A DNA stretch of 15,076 bases from IMG/VR virus record IMGVR_UViG_2531839662_000027, positions 1 through 15,076 of that record, one strand, 5' to 3'. Shown here piece by piece: positions 953 through 10,446 of this stretch; position 1 is the first letter of the stretch; each line of letters begins with the position of its first letter. The position numbers and the translations under genes are program-made. This DNA is from a virus (lineage: Duplodnaviria; Heunggongvirae; Uroviricota; Caudoviricetes). Under the pieces are notes generated by a model, which did no database searches, was not told the origin of the DNA, and saw only the letters and a list, made by a program, of their open reading frames with translations.

Positions 953-966
953 GGTAGTGCATCCAA

Positions 967-1362
967 TTAGTAGAACATGTGTTTTTCGATAAACGCTCCG
1001 ATCACTTTTTCGTGGATCTCAACTGAGCGTGAGAAGCAGATTGTTTTACGAGCCAACCGCTTAATGCGGGTGCGTAGCGTCAGATTATTACGCTCAATGC
1101 GTTGGGTGAATATTTTGCCGGTCAGATGCTTATTCTTCGGCACCTCCCGGCCATAGCTGCCCCAGTCATCGCTGGTCAGCATGCCGATGTTGAAGGGTGT
1201 AAGCAGTGCCAGTAGCTCCCGGCACGTTTGATCGGTTCGGGGACCAAAAGTGTAGGCCAGTACACCGCCTGTTTTGGTGTTGTACGCGTACCAGAGCCAG
1301 TGTTGCCGGGCTTTACTGCCAACGTAGCTCCATTGCTCATCAAGCTCGCAGATAAGCGCCAC
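967..1362 (-). CDS. insB: IS1 InsB reading frame (normally expressed as InsAB' transposase by -1 frameshift from insA)
   Basis: Translation aligns by eye with IS1 InsB (motifs ELDEQW.YVG, YTQRIER.NL.LR, SFSKSVE.H.KVIG); lies directly downstream of insA in the -1 frame. Confidence 0.8.
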   Translation of the reverse strand: MALICELDEQWSYVGSKARQHWLWYAYNTKTGGVLAYTFGPRTDQTCRELLALLTPFNIGMLTSDDWGSYGREVPKNKHLTGKIFTQRIERNNLTLRTRIKRLARKTICFSRSVEIHEKVIGAFIEKHMFY

Positions 1363-1388
1363 ATCAGCATGGGCAACAGGCGAAGACG

Positions 1389-1661
1389 TTATTCGCTTTG
1401 GCGCGAGTTTTTTAAAGTCCGGATGACGGTGTTAATACCAATTTTCAGTGTCCTGGCGGTATCGCGAACCCCGGCACCATTAAAGGCCATTTCAGTTATC
1501 AGCTCTTTCATACCCGGCTTACGTGCTTGATAAGTATAAGTGAGCTGAAACACACGGTGGCAGTCACGGCAGCGAAATCTGTCACGGCCTTTAGGGTTCT
1601 GACCATGGCGGTAAACCTGAGCTGACTGACAACGGGGACAATGAATATTAACGCTGGCCAT
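1389..1661 (-). CDS. insA: IS1 InsA (zinc-finger transposition regulator)
   Basis: 90-aa protein with a CPxC...CxxC zinc-finger N-terminus and helix-turn-helix C-terminus, colinear with IS1 InsA (MASV.I.CP.C...); divergent from classical IS1. Confidence 0.85.
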   Translation of the reverse strand: MASVNIHCPRCQSAQVYRHGQNPKGRDRFRCRDCHRVFQLTYTYQARKPGMKELITEMAFNGAGVRDTARTLKIGINTVIRTLKNSRQSE

Positions 1662-1718
1662 GAGATAACCTCAAAAGCCCGTATTATACATCAGATTCAA
1701 CTAATTAGAGGCATCACC

Positions 1719-1726: not shown

Positions 1727-2769
1727 TTAGCCCCAGCAAGGTGAACTCCGCGATTTGGCGCAGGAACAAAAGAACAGCAATCATAGGTATTAAGCCAGTC
1801 GTTTATAGTATAGAAGTTCGCCACCACGCCATTGATGAAACGACAATTATGGGTTCTTCCTAGGTGAACATATTGAATTCGGCAAGCATAGTTGGCGATG
1901 TTGTTCCCATCAACTGTAACGTGAGAGATAGATGTGCTACGTCTTATAGAGTCAGTTTCGTAGTACATGTTGACAACTGTCTCTCCAGTGAACCCACTCC
2001 CCGCAATAATGAATGACTTCTCAACGCCATCCCCGAATAGGTCAACAGTGCCTATTGTTAAATCAACTGGTGACTTAACATAGTAAGTTCCTGCAGGGAC
2101 AAACAGCCTCTTTCCTGCCGATAAAGCAACTGCTGCAGCAGCATTAAAGCTAGCTGAGTTATCTGCCGCTGGATCACCAGTAATGGGGAAAAATTGAGCA
2201 ACAGAAATATAATCTGCTACCGTCACTTCGTACCATGGCAAAGCAGGAGATGACGGAAGAGTGCCACTACCACCGGTGTAGATTTTATTATTATACCACC
2301 ACCAGTTATCAACATTAGATAACACCCCCTCCTGCCACACCCCCCCTAACGAGAAATCAAGACCGTAAGAAGTAGCTATCTGACTTAATGATAATGTTGC
2401 TCCTCTGTCAGAAGCTAATTCTTGCCTTAATTGGTCAGGGTCATACTTCAGCACATTAGGAAAATAGAACTGCTGTGCACCATACGCATCATAAACAGCC
2501 ATAGAATGGCCTTGCACAGTTACGAACTTGGCAATCTGTCCGTTATATACCGGATATCCAGCAGCGTTAATGATGATTGGTTGCGAAACAGGAACGTGAG
2601 AGCCGTCTTCGTTCTCCACATAAACCTGAATCTGGTTTTCAGGATTTACAGGGTCAGTGTCAATTTTACCGATATAAATTTTGCCATTGGCTACGGCTTT
2701 AAAAGAACGAGCCATAGTGAAGAGTTGCGAAGGCATGCTTACCACAACATTTGCGGTGATATCTGACAT
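1719..2769 (-). pseudogene. Tailspike gene (P22 gp9-type), N-terminal portion upstream of the IS1 insertion
   Basis: From ATG at 2769-2767 the protein starts [13 protein letters not shown]...[37 protein letters not shown]...[13 protein letters not shown]...NVLKYDPDQ, matching the P22 tailspike head-binding domain as I recall it ([13 protein letters not shown]...). The frame is cut one codon into the IS1 end. The track ORF starts 16 codons earlier at 2817; 2769 is preferred by homology. Confidence 0.8.
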
Positions 2770-2794
2770 TTCATTGCTCCAGACGAATGATATG

Positions 2795-2817
2795 ATGCAA
2801 CCATGATGTGGTTGCAT
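2795..2817. promoter_or_regulatory. Perfect 9-bp inverted repeat (ATGCAACCA-N5-TGGTTGCAT) in the mnt/tailspike divergent intergenic region; candidate repressor operator
   Basis: Arms 2795-2803 and 2809-2817 are exact reverse complements; sits between the divergent start codons of tailspike (2769) and mnt (2891); no T-run on either side, so a terminator is unlikely. Confidence 0.4.
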
Positions 2818-2890
2818 ACCGAAATGGTACTATTGAGTATTTATCCAGTGGGTTACGATGCCATTCCACCCAACTGGTGAGGCATCAAGG

Positions 2891-3151
2891 ATGTACAGCA
2901 AATACGACGATGCGCAGTTTCACTTGAGACTTCCGCATGAACTCCACGCGAAAATTAAACAGCGTGCGAAGATGAATAACAGGTCACTGAACTCAGAGAT
3001 AATTGCAGCGATTGAAGAATCATTGGCTAAACAAAGCTCTGCATCAGTTTACATTGACGATGCAGAGCGTATGGCAGAACAACAATCTGATATGGTTAAG
3101 AAAATTGTCTTTGATACGCTCAAAGAGATATATAAAAAAGACAGCAACTAA
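2891..3151 (+). CDS. mnt: Mnt-like ribbon-helix-helix repressor (Arc/MetJ family)
   Basis: Protein MYSKYDDAQFHLRLPHELHAKIKQRAKMNNRSLNSEIIAAIEESL...DDAERMAEQQSDMVKKIVFDTLKEIYKK resembles P22 Mnt as recalled (..NDAERLADEQSELVKKMVFDTLKDLYKK); P22-like synteny next to the tailspike. Start at 2891 preferred over the track start at 2858 by alignment and a GAGG 9 nt upstream. Confidence 0.7.
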   Translation: MYSKYDDAQFHLRLPHELHAKIKQRAKMNNRSLNSEIIAAIEESLAKQSSASVYIDDAERMAEQQSDMVKKIVFDTLKEIYKKDSN

Positions 3152-3168
3152 CCATCCGTGGCTTTCCG

Positions 3169-5014
3169 TTACTTCTGGTTATCATCACTGTTCATCCAGT
3201 ACATGATGCCTAGCCTTGATATGGTTTTCTTATCTGATTCTGGAAGTGAGTTGTAAAACGAGCGCCAAGCAGAAGAGCGTCTTACAGTTGTATCAACGAT
3301 GCTTTCTGGTGCTTGTTTTACTGCCAGCCTTGCTGCTTTCTGGAATTCTGGTGAGCTAATTAGCTTTTCTGCAGATTCAATTGATTCAGCGCCGCCCATC
3401 GCCCTGATTTTGCTGGCGACTTTTGCCCCAATTTCTGACCCAGCAACAGCACCTACTGCACTGAACGGTCCTGACACAGTTGAACCAACCGCAGTGCCAA
3501 TGCGTTGGGCATGGTTAGCAACAAATTCATTTGCCGCAGTGACGCGATTAAACCGTTTTACGAACTCGTTTAGTCTTCCTGTAGTTATCTCGTAAGATTT
3601 TGCGTCTTTGATAGCCTTTGCGACCTTATATACATCGTTCAGACCTGACATAGTCTCTTTTGGTAAATGTCGGGCAAGATTGCGCATCTGCCCGTTTGCT
3701 AACATGTTTTGATACCAGTCAGCAAACCCTGCAGGATTAAAATCAGCGCCACGTTTTCCGTTCGAAAGCATATCCCGAAGACCTGTTCCCAGTAGCTCGG
3801 TTCTTAGCTTCCTGGACGGCGTGTTTTGCATCAATTCACGAAATCCTTTGGCATCGCCTTTCGACATTGCCTGTAGTGCTGTAGTTGCTTTGCGAGAAAC
3901 ATCACCGTTCAGCGTTCTGCCAGTTAGATTAATCATTTGCTCTTCCATGCTTTTTCGCATCTGAACAAGCCTCTGAGCAACTTCAAAATCACGTAATGCA
4001 TTTGTCTCTGACAGCGCCGCCTTTTGATCATCGGCGAGCGAACCGTAAAGCCTCGATAAAGCAGCGCGATCAGCATCTTTATATGGTCCAGAATTCTTAT
4101 GAAGTGCATCACCAACAAGTCGTCGTTGCTTATTGAGATTTGCATAAGTTAATGCGCCGTTCTTGCCTGGATTAACTGCCCGAAAGACTCTCTTTTCAAT
4201 AGGGTCAAGGTTTTTCATCCCGCCAAGATCTTCTGCCACCTGTTTGAGCATTGACCTTGTTGATGGCGCATCAATTTTTGCACCTGCAGGCATCGCCTTT
4301 TCAACATTGCGATAAAGCTGGTCGCTTCGTTTCATCAGCGCAGACATTCTTCCATTGACCGTATCAATAAACTTGTCGCTCATACCAAGAGCATCTTTTG
4401 CACCGGAAACGCGATCAATTATCTCCCCCGCGCCCTGTGCTAGCTGCCTGATTGCTTCATTTTCCTGCACCTGTAGAGCAGAACCCGCACGGGACTTGAT
4501 TGCTTGCTCAACTGCCTTGTATTGCTCGTTCCCGGAAAAGTGTGAAGGGAGTAATGAATCAACATTAAGCCTTTCAGCAGACTCCAGAACTTCAGCCTGA
4601 GGATTGATATCTAGTTCATCAAGCGATGAAGCGAGATTTGGCCTTTTTTGTGCTGCTACTGTGCGAACGACTTCCTCTGGGTTCCTCGTCGCAGGCGTCA
4701 TTGGTACACCTTGTGCTACTCTTGCCTCTGCGGCATGAACCGCAGGATTTGTTGCTGCAGCGGCATCACCGGAGAATGGTGATGTTTCTGTTGGCGCCGT
4801 GGTCGCTCTCTGTGCAGATGTTTTATTGCCACTAATTATATTTGATGCACCACGAACACCACGGGTAACGCCATTTATCAGGCCATGCGTAGCAATGTTA
4901 AGTCCGGCATTAATAGCGGCATTTTCGGCAAAATCACCCCGTTGATTCGCCGCGTCAGCGAGAGAACCAATGACCATGTTTCCAGCTACACCTGCTCCAG
5001 GAACAAGATAACCG
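3169..5014 (-). pseudogene. Ejection (injection) protein, P22 gp16-like: portion downstream of the IS629 insertion
   Basis: 602-codon frame joins in frame to the 6325-6713 fragment when IS629 plus one CCG copy is removed, giving about 743 codons; last gene of the gp7-gp20-gp16-like series before mnt/tailspike. Confidence 0.55.
5012..5014. repeat. Left copy of the 3-bp IS629 target-site duplication (CCG)
   Basis: CCG immediately flanks both IS ends (5012-5014, 6325-6327); a 3-bp duplication is typical of the IS3 family. Confidence 0.55.
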
Positions 5015-5068
5015 TGAACCGCCCCGGAAATCCTGGAGACTAAACTCCCTGAGAAAGAGGTAAACAGG

Positions 5069-5395
5069 ATGACTAAAAATACTCGTTTTTCCCCCGAAGT
5101 CCGTCAGCGGGCGATTCGTATGGTTCTGGAAAGTCAGGATGAATATGACTCACAGTGGGCGGCAATTTGTTCCATTGCCCCAAAGATTGGCTGTACGCCG
5201 GAGACTCTGCGTGTCTGGGTTCGCCAGCATGAGCGGGATACCGGGGGCGGTGATGGTGGGCTCACCAGCGCTGAACGTCAGCGTCTGAAAGAGCTGGAAC
5301 GTGAAAATCGTGAACTGCGCCGCAGTAACGATATCCTTCGCCAGGCTTCCGCTTATTTTGCGAAGGCGGAGTTCGACCGCCTCTGGAAAAAATGA
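5069..5395 (+). CDS. IS629 OrfA (helix-turn-helix, leucine-zipper transposase N-terminal part)
   Basis: 108-aa ORF, IS3-family OrfA architecture; sequence recognised as IS629 OrfA. Confidence 0.9.
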
Positions 5396-6282
5396 TGCCA
5401 CTGCTGGATAAGCTGCGTGAGCAGTACGGGGTCGGACCGGTATGTAGCGAACTGCATATTGCCCCGTCAACGTATTACCATTGTCAGCAACAGCGACATC
5501 ATCCGGATAAACGCAGTGCCCGTGCGCAGCACGATGACTGGCTGAAGAAAGAGATACAGCGCGTATACGATGAAAATCACCAGGTATACGGTGTGCGTAA
5601 AGTCTGGCGTCAGTTGTTACGGGAAGGTATCAGAGTGGCCAGATGCACTGTGGCACGTCTCATGGCAGTTATGGGACTTGCCGGTGTTCTCCGGGGTAAA
5701 AAGGTCCGCACTACCGTCAGCCGGAAAGCCGTTGCCGCAGGCGACCGCGTAAACCGTCAGTTCGTGGCAGAACGACCTGACCAGCTGTGGGTGGCTGATT
5801 TTACTTACGTCAGCACATGGCAGGGCTTCGTCTATGTGGCGTTTATCATTGATGTGTTTGCCGGATACATCGTGGGGTGGCGGGTCTCATCGTCTATGGA
5901 AACGACATTCGTGCTGGATGCGCTGGAGCAGGCGTTGTGGGCCCGTCGTCCGTCTGGCACCATCCATCACAGCGATAAAGGCTCTCAGTATGTGTCACTG
6001 GCCTATACGGAGCGACTAAAAGAAGCCGGATTACTGGCATCAACAGGGAGTACAGGCGACTCGTATGACAACGCGATGGCTGAGAGCATCAATGGTCTTT
6101 ACAAAGCGGAGGTAATACACCGTAAGAGCTGGAAAAACCGTGCAGAAGTGGAACTGGCCACACTAACGTGGGTGGACTGGTATAACAATCGACGATTGCT
6201 GGGAAGGCTGGGCCATACTCCTCCGGCAGAAGCAGAAAAAGCTTATTATGCTTCCATCGGAAACGATGATCTGGCAGCCTGA
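5392..6282 (+). CDS. IS629 OrfB (DDE catalytic domain; expressed as OrfAB by -1 frameshift)
   Basis: 296-aa ORF overlapping orfA by ATGA; integrase-like DDE region (..[16 protein letters not shown]..). Confidence 0.9.
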
Positions 6283-6324
6283 GTTCACAGATAAAACACT
6301 CTCCAGGAAACCCGGGGCGGTTCA

Positions 6325-6327
6325 CCG
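6325..6327. repeat. Right copy of the 3-bp IS629 target-site duplication (CCG)
   Basis: See 5012-5014. Confidence 0.55.
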
Positions 6328-6713
6328 CCTATTGACTCTCCAGCTTGCGCGTAGGGGTCTGTCGGTCTGTCTACTGGACGATAAACATCATCCAATACTT
6401 TTGGCCCCCCAAGCCCCTGACTGATTGCATTAATCAGACTTGCGCCACCCTGCAATACGTCAAATGGTATGTTTACCAGACCACGACCAGCCTGTTCTGC
6501 AATTTGCCCTGCACTTTGACCACCAGTGAGCCAATCGCCAGCTTGTTGCATCAATGATGGTTCTTCCCGTGTTGGTGCATTATTGGCCTGATTAACTGTT
6601 TGTTGCTGAACAGCCTGACCAGCAAAATACTCATCAATGGCGGTGCCAATATCTTCGGTGCTCGTACCATCAGGGAAGGTAAATGTCTTACCGTTTGCAG
6701 TTACTTTCATCAT
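6325..6713 (-). pseudogene. Ejection protein gp16-like: N-terminal portion upstream of the IS629 insertion
   Basis: Start ATG at 6713-6711 overlaps the stop of the upstream gene (ATGA coupling); native coding runs to 6325, and the last 13 codons of the track ORF (6285-6323) are read from the IS629 end. Confidence 0.55.
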
Positions 6714-8116
6714 TCCACCGTAAATTGAATGCCTGATTTTGAGGTATATGATCCAACCTGATTCCTTGGTTCTCCTGAAGGTGTCGAATCTTGTGCTGGC
6801 GCTGCGTCAGTATTCATTGACATATACCGCTTAACGGCACTCCCCAATGATTCACCTTTTTTAACATCCAACCCCAATATCTGACCGCCATTACGCGATT
6901 GTCCTGGATTGCCATTCGCGCTCATCCACTCGGCTTTAAACTCATTAAACTGCGCGTTTCGTCGCTCAAGGTTTGCCATCGCATCAAGCCATCTTGCGAC
7001 CGTCTCAGGGTTATCCATGTCAGTTGGCGCACCCTGTCGAACGATCTCAACGTCTTTATCCGTTGCTGGGCCGGGAGGTAGGAATTTAAGAACCTGACTG
7101 TTAACAAGGGCATTTTGGCGAATGCGCAAATCACGCAATGTTGTATCGCTTCCGGTAAGTTTTGCGAACATGTTCTGTGCGTTACCGAACAAACCTGTCG
7201 TTGGTTTTTCTGCTCTGAACTGTTGAGCAAGCGCACTCATAGAATTGGCTGAGTTTGATGATGCTGTAGCATTGTTTACAGCCGTCTCGATGCCTTTTTC
7301 CATGTTTACTGACAGCTTAGGTGCTTCGCTAATCAACTGCTGAGCCTTTTCCTGCGCTTGCTGCATCTTAAACCCGAACTCTTGCTGATCCAGAGCCAAG
7401 CGTTGTGCTGCGATATTGTGCCCTGTCATTGCTGACTGATAGGAAAGGTTTTGCCCTCTCGCCTGAAGTGCCTCGCCAGCCTGATTGCTGCGGATTGTCT
7501 CTGCCAGCCTGCCTCGGTCAATCTCACGACCAGCCATCTTGTCCTGAACATTGAAGTAGTCAATCGGACCGAGAGCAGCCATCCCAAGGTGATCAACAAA
7601 CTCACCAAATCCTGAAGGATTCTGCTGATACATCTGAGCAACGCTGTTAGGGTCAACACCGACGCGAGTCAGTTCCTTGGCGTTGTTTTGCAGCCATGAT
7701 TGCATTGCTTCTGGAGACGATGACGCAAGGCGTGCGCCAGCCGCTAAGGTGCCGATAGAATTGCGCTGGTCTTCATCAATGAATCCCATGCCTTTACGAA
7801 CGGATTCAATCTGGTCTGGATATTGAGTAGCCAACTGACGCAAAGCACCGCGATCACCAGACGCATAAGCATTAGCGTACGCCTGCTGAAATTCTTTCTG
7901 CCGCTGAGCCTGCTTTTCCTGCTGAAACACCCCTGCAATGCCTGAAAGGCCTTGCAAAGCAGTAAGCCCAACATTGTTAGCGCCTGAACGCTCAATATCA
8001 TTGTTCTGCCTGATAAGCTGAAGCGTATTGCCGATGTCATTTACGCTCGGAGCGTTTGAGTTGACGCCGCCGATACCAGCTAACAATCCGCCATTTGATC
8101 CTTGCCAAGTAGCCAT
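6710..8116 (-). CDS. Ejection (injection) protein, P22 gp20-like, 468 aa
   Basis: Size nearly identical to P22 gp20 (471 aa as recalled), Gln/Ala-rich helical composition, position between the gp7-like and gp16-like genes, translationally coupled at both ends. Assigned by synteny and size, not by a verified alignment. Confidence 0.6.
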
Positions 8117-8125
8117 GATTACCCC

Positions 8126-8504
8126 TTAAAACAACGAGCCAAGCAATCCGATACCAGCACCAATGCCAGCGCCCCAAGGTGTTGATGTTCCCAAAAGGCT
8201 GGCAAGACCTGCACCGGCAATCGCACCAGACGTTCCGCCACTAATTGCTGTCTGAAGACTTGATGGTTTGTTGGCATTAGCAGCGGCAAGAGCTGCGCTT
8301 TGCTGTGCAATGCTGCTCATGTTGTTGGCGTACGTCTGCCCGGCGTTTGCCTGACCTTGCAGAGCACCAAGCCCAACGTTTGCCAGATTGTTGTAATTGC
8401 TCATCTGGTTTGATAACCAAGACTGACCGAGAGTCGGCGCGATCGTAGCCAGTTGATTGCTTGTGGCTGTCGAACCAAGTCCTCCCGTAACCGCGAGGCA
8501 TCGA
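8126..8504 (-). pseudogene. 3' fragment of a gp7-like ejection protein gene, 5'-truncated at the deletion junction
   Basis: The open frame runs into cro-derived DNA in a frame different from cro; the first 17 codons of track ORF 8126..8554 are cro DNA read out of frame, so no native start or RBS remains. C-terminus is Gly/Ala-rich and hydrophobic. Confidence 0.45.
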
Positions 8505-8582
8505 CTATACGCCGAGATCTTTAGCTGTCTTGGTTTGACCAAAGCGCATTGCATAATCTTTCAGAGTTATGCGTTGTTCCAT
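8505..8582 (-). pseudogene. cro: cro, truncated after codon 25 by a deletion junction
   Basis: Minus strand reads CATGTACTAAGGAGGTTGTATGGAACAACGCATAAC...AAAGATCTCGGCGTATAG: lambda cro RBS and first 25 codons (MEQRITLKDYAMRFGQTKTAKDLGV), then a stop where lambda has TAT CAA AGC; sequence 3' of 8505 is unrelated to cro. Confidence 0.8.
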
Positions 8583-8606
8583 ACAACCTCCTTAGTACAT
8601 GCAATT

Positions 8607-8676
8607 ATTATCACCGCTAGAGGTAAAATAGTCAACACGCACGGTGTTAGATATTTATCCCTTGCGGTGATAGATT
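8607..8676. promoter_or_regulatory. Lambda-type right operator: oR1 (8609-8625), oR2 (8633-8649), oR3 (8656-8672), with pR (minus strand) and pRM (plus strand)
   Basis: 17-bp operators TATCACCGCTAGAGGTA, CAACACGCACGGTGTTA and TATCCCTTGCGGTGATA match lambda oR1/oR2/oR3 with one change in oR1; pRM-like TAGATA (8648-8653) and TAGATT (8671-8676) precede a leaderless cI ATG at 8683; pR -35/-10 read on the minus strand at 8635-8630 and 8612-8607. Confidence 0.85.
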
Positions 8677-8679
8677 TAA

Positions 8680-9396
<717 letters not shown>

Positions 9397-9403
9397 CACG
9401 TAA

Positions 9404-9841
9404 ATGATTAAAGAACGTATTTCTTATATCATTCCGATTGCGATGGATGAAGGCAACCCCGTAACTCCAGTTCTTATCTATGAAATGGATAAAGACTCCC
9501 ATGAAGTGGATCTGTCATTTGGCGCTTTTTTTATCGGCCTTAAGGCTACAAAAAAATATTCCATAGGCATTGAGGTTTTCAATGCTCAAGAAATACCGAT
9601 ACCAATTGACACAAAACTGTACTCCAACCATAAGTTTTTTACGGTAGCAGAAGCCAACGATGGAGAAACCATCGTATCAACTTCTATGAGAATTAACTTC
9701 CCAAGGGTGAAAATTATCAAGCCTGGGATATTCGAAGTTAGAGCATCACTGGTTAATCCTGAGAAAGGCGAAGTAATTGATGTAAAAAGTTCGTTTTTTG
9801 ACGTGAAGATAACAGGATCAGTTCGCGATGAGTTTAGATAA
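9404..9841 (+). CDS. Hypothetical 145-aa protein in the rex position (first gene of the cI-linked module)
   Basis: ATG 7 nt after the cI stop, no terminator between; no transmembrane segment evident; AT-rich; no similarity to RexA that I can recognise. Confidence 0.6.
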   Translation: MIKERISYIIPIAMDEGNPVTPVLIYEMDKDSHEVDLSFGAFFIGLKATKKYSIGIEVFNAQEIPIPIDTKLYSNHKFFTVAEANDGETIVSTSMRINFPRVKIIKPGIFEVRASLVNPEKGEVIDVKSSFFDVKITGSVRDEFR

Positions 9842-10199
9842 CAAGGTTGCTCAGCTTCGTCCAAATCAAAACATATCTCGCCCAATTGGACACTATTCCA
9901 CTGATGATGCATACTCACGGCATGGTGGAGGAAACGGCGGAGGTAACATGCTTGAGGCTAGAGTTGCAAAGCTAGAGTCTGATGTTGAATACATCAAGCG
10001 CGATCTCGCTGAGGTAAAGTCAGATATAAAATCTGTTGATTCTCGTCTGTCAGGTATTGAGACAAGCATTAGCTCAGCAAAAACCACCATTAAGGCATCT
10101 GCGGTCGTTGTCAGTTTCGTGTTCGCATTTTGCGCCTACATTTTTGGAAGTTATGTTTCCAAAATCCTTGATGCCTTAAACGGACTCGTTCTTAAGTAA
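9828..10199 (+). CDS. Hypothetical small membrane protein (123 aa, or 80 aa from the internal start at 9958): Gly-rich linker, coiled coil, C-terminal hydrophobic segment
   Basis: Overlaps the previous ORF by 14 nt; heptad-like LEARVAKLESDVEYIKRDLAEVKSDIKSVDSRL; hydrophobic AVVVSFVFAFCAYIFGSYV; internal ATG at 9958 is preceded by GGAGGTAAC; a strong terminator follows. Confidence 0.6.
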   Translation: MSLDNKVAQLRPNQNISRPIGHYSTDDAYSRHGGGNGGGNMLEARVAKLESDVEYIKRDLAEVKSDIKSVDSRLSGIETSISSAKTTIKASAVVVSFVFAFCAYIFGSYVSKILDALNGLVLK

Positions 10200-10206
10200 C
10201 ACACAA

Positions 10207-10233
10207 CCCGGCCTCAGTGCCGGGTTTTCTTTG
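10207..10233 (+). terminator. Rho-independent terminator ending the cI operon (t-imm equivalent)
   Basis: Perfect 6-bp GC stem CCCGGC/GCCGGG with 6-nt loop followed by TTTTCTTTG, directly after the second rex-slot ORF. Confidence 0.7.
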
Positions 10234-10383
10234 CCTCTCGATCCCCCTTCCCAACAACACATAACCATTTGTATTTATTGGAAAACTAATAGATACAACT
10301 TGCTAAACAGTGCAATTCTGATCCCTCACCTACCTAACAATTCACCCCTGCAAAAAATAAATCCATATAAAAAACATACAGAT

Positions 10384-10446
10384 AACCATCTGCGGTGATA
10401 AATTATCTCTGGCGGTGTTGACACAAATACCACTAGCGGTGATACT
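10384..10446 (+). promoter_or_regulatory. Lambda-type left operator and pL: oL3 (10384-10400), oL2 (10404-10420), oL1 (10428-10444); pL -35 TTGACA (10418-10423), -10 GATACT (10441-10446)
   Basis: AACCATCTGCGGTGATA, TATCTCTGGCGGTGTTG and TACCACTAGCGGTGATA match lambda oL3/oL2/oL1 as recalled; 17-bp spacer between -35 and -10; oriented toward N. Confidence 0.85.

Follow-up and report, generated by a model that had tools for sequence, protein, structure and literature searches.

A candidate Mnt operator and a putative tailspike-leader RNA hairpin in the mnt–tailspike spacer of a defective P22-like prophage

The 121-bp spacer (positions 2770–2890) between the divergent tailspike and mnt genes of this P22-like prophage carries an inverted repeat at 2795–2817, and the original prediction was that the Mnt-like repressor may control transcription reading into the tailspike gene through this palindrome. 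Our analysis leads us to favor, with fair confidence, an arrangement in which two abutting elements divide the spacer between them. The Mnt operator is probably a 17-bp element at 2815–2831, identified by its homology to the operator Omnt of phage P22, and the palindrome is most likely, judging from sequence comparisons, a small hairpin in the 5′ leader of the tailspike RNA. The coordinates of these and the neighboring features are collected in Table 1; throughout, the window means the whole 15,076-nucleotide stretch of DNA that was analyzed.

Table 1. Features of the mnt–tailspike region and its flanks, in window coordinates
Feature	Position	Strand	Description
Tailspike gene, 5′ part	1719–2769	minus	Head-binding domain and start of receptor-binding domain; remainder of the gene at 1–952
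IS1-family element	953–1718		InsA ORF 1661–1389 on the minus strand; splits the tailspike gene; 8-bp target duplication
Tailspike Shine-Dalgarno	2777–2780	minus	GGAG, 7 nt upstream of the start codon (2769)
Putative stem-loop in the tailspike 5′ leader (palindrome as RNA)	2795–2817	minus	5′-AUGCAACCA-CAUCA-UGGUUGCAU-3′; ends 25 nt before the AUG
Candidate Mnt operator, P22 Omnt homologue	2815–2831	none	CATACCGAAATGGTACT (plus strand), AGTACCATTTCGGTATG (tailspike sense)
Pmnt homologue	2833–2859	plus	-35 TTGAGT 2833–2838, -10 TACGAT 2854–2859, by homology to P22
Pant homologue, degenerate	2836–2864	minus	Predicted only; faces the tailspike; -35 ATGGCA 2864–2859, two options for the -10 (see text)
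mnt	2891–3151	plus	86-aa ribbon-helix-helix (RHH) repressor with the Mnt C-terminal tetramerization helix
Ejection-protein gene, 3′ part	3169–5020	minus	At the gp16 position, convergent with mnt
IS3-family element	5021–6334		1,314 bp, IS629-sized; OrfA 5069–5395, OrfB 5392–6282; splits the ejection-protein gene

The mnt–tailspike module and its prophage

The window spans the whole of a defective prophage, running from the tailspike stop to torI, that occupies the argW tRNA-Arg site, which is the CPS-53 site of K-12. Apart from the two IS insertions, both of which are missing from UMNF18, the window is identical to the defective P22-like prophage that E. coli UMNF18 carries at its tRNA-Arg site. 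Head and terminase genes have been lost, and what is left of a DNA-transfer gene directly adjoins a cro fragment and a LexA-family repressor. With its tailspike gene disrupted by an IS and the virion genes deleted, the mnt–tailspike module is a relic in this genome, and the function of the spacer, whatever its nature, belongs to intact relatives such as Sf101 and IME10. At least 80% of positions 2700–3160 is present in 254 of 5,426 complete E. coli genomes.

The tailspike reading frame opens with a Pfam Head_binding domain (E 3.6e-68), and its product is 74% identical to the N-terminus of P22 gp9. On the other side of mnt, 17 bp separate the mnt stop from the end of a convergent 602-aa ORF, as had been noted from the ORF ends at 3151 and 3169. 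The convergent gene had been described as gp16-like, which is apt for its position and not for its sequence, as the C-terminus of P22 gp16 finds no match. The absence of sieA, arc and ant was borne out by tblastn searches of the window with the P22 proteins, which found none of the three (best E 0.07, for Arc at an unrelated position; the best for Ant was 5.2). A search with P22 Mnt additionally returned a weak in-frame match on the minus strand at 7364–7558 (37% identity over 65 aa, E 5e-4 in a small search); it falls inside a gp20-like ejection-protein ORF and may be a compositional effect.

The assignment of mnt is borne out by matches to Pfam and PDB entries. The protein matches Pfam Arc, the N-terminal RHH DNA-binding domain (E 3.4e-15), and Pfam Repressor_Mnt (E 2e-13), as well as PDB entries 1mnt (E 1e-19, residues 6–79 aligned) and 1qey (E 3.1e-8). 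It is 49% identical to P22 Mnt, and its recognition strand reads Q-F-H-L-R where that of P22 reads H-F-N-F-R. Database labels for this gene can mislead: in Sf101 (locus L001, 3259–3552) the annotated mnt begins 33 nt too far upstream and is labeled either 'partition protein ATPase' or 'chromosome segregation ATPase', and RefSeq attaches the partition/chromosome-segregation ATPase label to mnt of P22, epsilon34 and ST64T as well.

A prophage module in which mnt stands without its usual partners is already known and not new. The variable region before the tailspike has been named the 'ant moron', and in ST64T, ST104 and Para1 it consists of mnt and one unknown gene only (PMC2629481). The same mnt-only layout was described for phage L, where it was asked if mnt on its own is a remnant or has taken on a new job (PMC8022706). 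Comparison with the immI regions of other P22-like phages, which had been proposed as a check, shows this layout recurring in ST64T, ST104, Para1, L, Sf101 and IME10, and mnt also lies beside the tailspike in L, Gally, JEP4 and VSe13. Genes of the QFHLR class are divergent from the tailspike and 120–139 bp from its start in 105 of about 120 loci. A crude dN/dS of about 0.25, estimated over 48 alleles among which a single internal stop occurs, places mnt under purifying selection. This selection and the fixed position beside the tailspike indicate that the lone mnt is kept for some function.

The adjacency of mnt and tailspike is also found in CUS-3-like contigs that have a separate RHH–arc–ant module upstream. 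Five such contigs (L218, at 7300–10420, L294, L265, L207 and L283) carry two further RHH genes and an arc-like gene upstream, with ant there in two of the five; all five keep a QFHLR-class mnt and its operator directly beside the tailspike.

A candidate Mnt operator and the flanking promoter homologues

When the 110 bp preceding mnt in eleven phages and prophages are aligned with MAFFT, P22 Omnt pairs with window positions 2815–2831 and not with 2795–2817. Window CATACCGAAATGGTACTATTGAG falls on P22 AGGTCCACCGTGGACCTATTGAG and phage L AAGACCACGGTGGTCTTATTGTG, the CC-N5-GG and ATTG columns being invariant, and the candidate operator CATACCGAAATGGTACT is matched column for column to P22 AGGTCCACCGTGGACCT. 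The annotated P22 operator, CTCAATAGGTCCACGGTGGACCT, follows closely on the Pant -10 and borders directly on the Pmnt -35 (TTGAGA); if that annotated span is carried over to the window, the equivalent site would end at 2837. At the Omnt position, phage L has TAAGACCACGGTGGTCTTA followed by ATTGTGG, and Gally has AGACCACTGTGGTCT followed by ATTGAGG. Read in the tailspike sense, the match extends upstream of the operator, with TATATT-CTCAAT-AGGTCC in P22 and TAAATA-CTCAAT-AGTACC in the window. The distance from the operator center to the mnt ATG is 66–71 bp over all classes (66 bp in P22, 68 bp in the window, where the center is at 2823, and 71 bp in L).

The type of operator tracks the recognition strand of the repressor. 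Proteins with the N-terminus MARDDPHFNFR are accompanied by GGTCCAC-N-GTGGACC, those with MGRDDPQFNLR by AGACCAC-N-GTGGTCT, and those with MYSKYDEAQFHLR, as in the QFHLR class, by TACC-N5-GGTA, while the Arg residue and the CC/GG core are constant in all three. The TACC-N5-GGTA motif occurs a single time in the window, where the candidate operator is a weak dyad, symmetric only in TACC/GGTA; among 79 distinct QFHLR-class loci it is kept in 75, at 68–71 bp from the mnt ATG. A scan of viral contigs with the operator pattern gave 120 matches, 65 of them with no mnt nearby; 64 of these 65 are clearly unrelated chance matches, and the rest of the 120 show the CUS-3-like arrangement.

A scan of the genome collection with the Mnt protein yielded five loci only, which are the most divergent and hence the most useful. 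Loci from Buttiauxella, Serratia and Citrobacter have the operator homologue and lack the palindrome. The Buttiauxella locus (L010) has a perfect dyad, GTACCAAAATGGTAC, at the operator position, the Serratia locus has a typical QFHLR-class operator, and in the Citrobacter locus a mutated operator is found next to an mnt pseudogene. In this last case (L012, approximately 2900–3015) mnt is interrupted by TAG at codon 5 and the operator reads AGTAC instead of GGTAC, so that gene and site are apparently decaying together. The features by which Omnt can be recognized, namely its position, the spacing of its core and its co-variation with the recognition strand, are all present at 2815–2831, and none of them is found at the palindrome.

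The promoters that flank the P22 operator have recognizable, partly eroded counterparts in the spacer. A consensus promoter scan of the window called neither the Pmnt nor the Pant homologue, the latter scoring below threshold, so both are assigned by homology only. The Pmnt homologue has a spacer of 15 bp, compared with 17 bp in JEP4-type relatives and P22. For the Pant homologue, the -10 could be TAAATA at 2843–2838, which is the homologous hexamer and leaves a 15-bp spacer, or AATACT at 2841–2836 with a 17-bp spacer. A 2-bp deletion in the lineage of the window shortens the homologous spacers of both promoters, and the Pant-like hexamers, with 8 of 12 consensus matches, are poorly kept in relatives of the JEP4 and Gally types. 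Transcription from the Pant homologue is predicted to start inside the candidate operator, which itself lies approximately 44 bp upstream of the predicted Pmnt start. The candidate operator also contains TGgTACTAT (2825–2833), a possible extended -10 in the mnt sense, where JEP4-type relatives have CGgTACGAT. This element could offset the 15-bp spacer of Pmnt, in which case Mnt would be a direct autorepressor.

The palindrome as a probable hairpin in the tailspike leader

The palindrome has the sequence ATGCAACCA-TGATG-TGGTTGCAT, with 9-nt arms (2795–2803 and 2809–2817) that are 100% complementary around a 5-nt spacer, exactly as originally reported. No other perfect inverted repeat of at least 9 bp with a 3–10-nt loop occurs in the 15-kb window, against a chance expectation from dinucleotide shuffles of 0.47 per window; shuffling of the 121-bp spacer produced a perfect repeat of at least 9 bp in 25 of 5000 cases. 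The description of the repeat as perfect applies to the window and a few relatives, while the common allele has one mismatch as DNA. Among the 79 distinct QFHLR-class loci, other genera included, the palindrome is perfect in two, present in some form in 54 and absent from 25. Its usual form has an A·C mismatch in DNA that corresponds to a U·G wobble in the RNA of the tailspike sense.

The variation among alleles is better accommodated by a tailspike-sense RNA than by DNA. The commonest allele, AUGCAAUCA...UGGUUGCAU, contains the U·G pair (A·C on the other strand), and in several loci, which read AUGCAAUCA...UGAUUGCAU, the pair is restored as U-A by a compensatory change. Three further independent transitions each result in a G·U pair in the tailspike sense. 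Over 11 distinct alleles, 98.0% of the cells are paired in the tailspike sense, compared with 85.9% on the plus strand. An Escherichia sp. locus (L008) has AUUCAAU-N9-AUUGAAU at the same place, with a G-C to U-A exchange. Two singletons (L114 and L143) each break a pair, and the hairpin is lost in one relative (L090). The compensatory and wobble changes (among them L008 and the double changes of the L045 type) consistently point to one strand, though in sequences too close for shuffle controls to discriminate: because the alleles are nearly identical and their diversity is low, such controls on pairing are uninformative.

Leaders of other types contain hairpins, mostly unrelated in sequence, at or near the same position, and the palindrome would be the local version of a stem-loop present in almost every P22-like phage. 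The stem-loop is CCGUAGC-CAU-GCUGCGG in P22, epsilon34, HK620, CUS-3, L and JEP4, CCGCAG-CUUGC-CUGUGG in the Buttiauxella and Citrobacter loci, and AUGCAAU...GUUGCAU in Sf6 and L070, whose outer stem is the same as that of the window. Hairpins lie 25–28 nt before the AUG in most leader types and approximately 34–37 nt before it in the Sf6 type, and almost every tailspike leader retains CTGGAGCA at the Shine-Dalgarno site. Among 18 distinct alleles of the P22-type stem, which include U·G, G·U and G-C replacements, pairing amounts to 96.8%. In P22 this hairpin lies approximately 1.4 kb from mnt and therefore cannot be a Mnt site in that phage. The folding z-score is -2.3 in the window and -1.0 in Sf101, and single-sequence scores are modest and variable across leaders. 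The argument for a hairpin thus comes from comparative sequence data, namely its recurrence across leader types and the strand asymmetry of the changes. A search of Rfam at permissive thresholds returned only two chance-level matches to eukaryotic/archaeal families, far below gathering scores. No description of a tailspike-leader stem-loop was found in the literature searched, and the CUS-3 annotation of the region is just 'boundary sequence'.

Two variants of the leader are worth recording. In the leaders of Sf6 (L173, 1365–1430) and L070, either of two hairpins that exclude one another could fold, GUGCAAU/GUUGCAU or CCGGACAG/CUUGUCCGG, and all differences between these two leaders keep both hairpins through wobble or A-U pairs, so this could be an RNA switch. 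In L009 (2330–2869), as in L101, L152, L158 and L161, a 179-aa ORF in the mnt sense, judged by eye to be HNH/AP2-type homing endonuclease-like, is found after the first ∼13 nt of the tailspike ORF; the displaced tailspike has a new leader with a hairpin of its own, GCUAGCAAU...AUUGCUUGC. Three other readings of the spacer were considered and rejected: an RNase III site at the hairpin, which has too short a stem; a tailspike start in frame at AUG 2817, farther upstream, which has no ribosome-binding site and is not used by homologues, all of which start at the conserved MSDIT/MTDIT; and a 25-codon ORF on the plus strand (2804–2881), which is unsupported.

Could the palindrome nonetheless serve this Mnt variant as its operator, whether as the sole site or as one of two, next to 2815–2831, and could Mnt bound there block tailspike transcription? 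It is the sole perfect dyad of its kind in the window and is situated in a divergent spacer, its arms contain CCA...TGG like the operators of P22 and L, and a new operator is to be expected for a repressor whose recognition residues differ from those of P22. We consider this unlikely, however, given that the palindrome is not at the Omnt-homologous position, its center being 17 bp farther from mnt than the aligned site, and that its core is CC-N7-GG whereas the aligned Mnt operators are all CC-N5-GG. It is unlike the P22 operator, as the original prediction had noted. Its absence from 25 of the 79 loci with the same recognition strand and its perfect form in two also speak against an operator, as do polymorphisms whose strand asymmetry is not predicted for a DNA dyad. 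Some weak binding of Mnt to the palindrome may still occur through the CCA/TGG sequences, which resemble Mnt half-sites.

Little more credence is due to the view that the palindrome is functionless, a by-product of recombination that joined an Sf6-type leader (...GTTGCAT), through an ATGCAA microhomology, to the end of the mnt module (...GGTATGCAAC, a sequence that JEP4-type loci have as well). Sequences of both kinds occur: ATGCAAC follows the operator in JEP4-type loci that have no right arm, and the Sf6 and L070 leaders carry AUGCAAU...GUUGCAU. The modest folding z-scores would also suit such an origin. A scar does not explain why pairing is maintained through wobble and compensatory changes, or why non-homologous hairpins recur at an equal distance from the AUG in independent leader types. 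Improbable to a greater degree is an attenuator or terminator that would stop unmodified RNA polymerase arriving from the Pant-like promoter or from moron genes and be passed by antiterminated late transcription. The hairpin does lie between the promoter region and the tailspike, and L169 has another, terminator-like hairpin at or near the leader position that is followed by a U-tract. There is also a precedent in P22, where Berget, Poteete and Sauer are reported to have found in 1983 that tail protein expression is controlled by termination at t_ant. On the other hand, the stem in the window has 3 G-C among its 9 pairs and is followed by CAUAUCAUUCG and not by a U-tract, and a terminator scan called nothing at 2795–2817. 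In epsilon34, HK620 and CUS-3, moreover, the leader hairpin is just downstream of a separate, strong t_ant and is hence a different element from it.

Possible roles and comparison with known systems

Under the preferred reading of an operator at 2815–2831 beside a leader hairpin, Mnt made by the prophage would bind the 17-bp element as a tetramer, directly upstream of the Pmnt -35 and over the start of the tailspike-facing Pant homologue, in the manner of Omnt in P22. Once bound, Mnt would prevent initiation toward the tailspike and sustain or regulate the mnt promoter, and it may also impede transcription reading through from upstream. Since the Pant homologue is weak and poorly kept and the spacers are shortened, repression of a strong tailspike promoter is only one option, and hindering read-through and regulating mnt are equally possible. 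The palindrome would act in the mRNA and not as a protein-binding DNA dyad; our guess is that the hairpin might stabilize the 5′ boundary of the tailspike cistron or serve to mark it, with a presumed effect on stability, a processing boundary or translation.

Control of the tailspike by Mnt, as originally suggested, is therefore plausible in that mnt is conserved and fixed beside the tailspike, but probably not by way of the palindrome, because Omnt aligns with 2815–2831 and the palindrome is perfect in so few loci. Such gating has already been suggested in print for P22 (PMC2629481), which makes the idea reasonable but not new. A farther-reaching interpretation, which we regard as possible and rather doubtful, is that QFHLR-class Mnt is a dedicated repressor of tailspike-directed transcription and not a leftover of a decayed immI, that TACC-N5-GGTA is a new operator specificity, and that tailspike dosage in P22-like phages at large is set by the stem-loop, as a conserved cis-acting RNA not described before.

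For annotation, these results correct a likely mis-assignment between operator and leader hairpin, and they offer an operator candidate for a common class of Mnt whose member in Sf101 has been mis-annotated as a partition ATPase. With respect to the question posed for phage L, purifying selection and a fixed place favor a kept function over a remnant. The recurrent leader hairpin is a candidate regulator of tailspike dosage in a well-studied group of phages. The known picture of immI is unchanged.

The closest parallel to the arrangement in the window is the immI region of P22, which likewise has a divergent mnt with RHH and tetramerization domains, a 17-bp operator with a CC-N5-GG core that abuts the ATTGAG of the Pmnt -35, CTCAAT between the Pant -10 and the operator, and an about equal distance from operator to mnt ATG. 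The window differs in having no arc, ant, sar or Oarc, so that the homologue of the arc–ant promoter faces the tailspike directly. Its recognition strand has Q/H/R in place of H/N/R and its half-site is TACC in place of GGTCCAC. In addition, the window has the weaker dyad, and its counterparts of Pmnt and Pant are both degenerate, with spacers of 15 bp.

The ant morons of ST64T, ST104, Para1 and L resemble the window in that mnt is alone between the ejection-protein gene and the tailspike and is divergent from the latter (PMC2629481, PMC8022706), with an Omnt-like dyad approximately 70 bp before mnt and a hairpin approximately 27 nt before the tailspike AUG. They differ in their QFNLR Mnt class, with the operator AAGACCACGGTGGTCTT, and in the P22-type leader hairpin CCGUAGC...GCUGCGG; phage L additionally retains orf62. 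The gp14–gp15 region of Sf101 and the corresponding region of IME10 contain the same module, with the same Mnt, operator and leader (97.6% identity over window 2600–3300 for Sf101). In Sf101 the repeat has a G-to-A change (TGATTGCAT), the tailspike is intact, and mnt is mis-annotated. Finally, the gene 9 leaders of P22, epsilon34, HK620, CUS-3 and Sf6 have hairpins that are unrelated in sequence to that of the window, except for the outer stem AUGCAA/UUGCAU of the Sf6 type, yet all share with it a tailspike-sense stem-loop, a pyrimidine-rich single strand and then CUGGAGCA.
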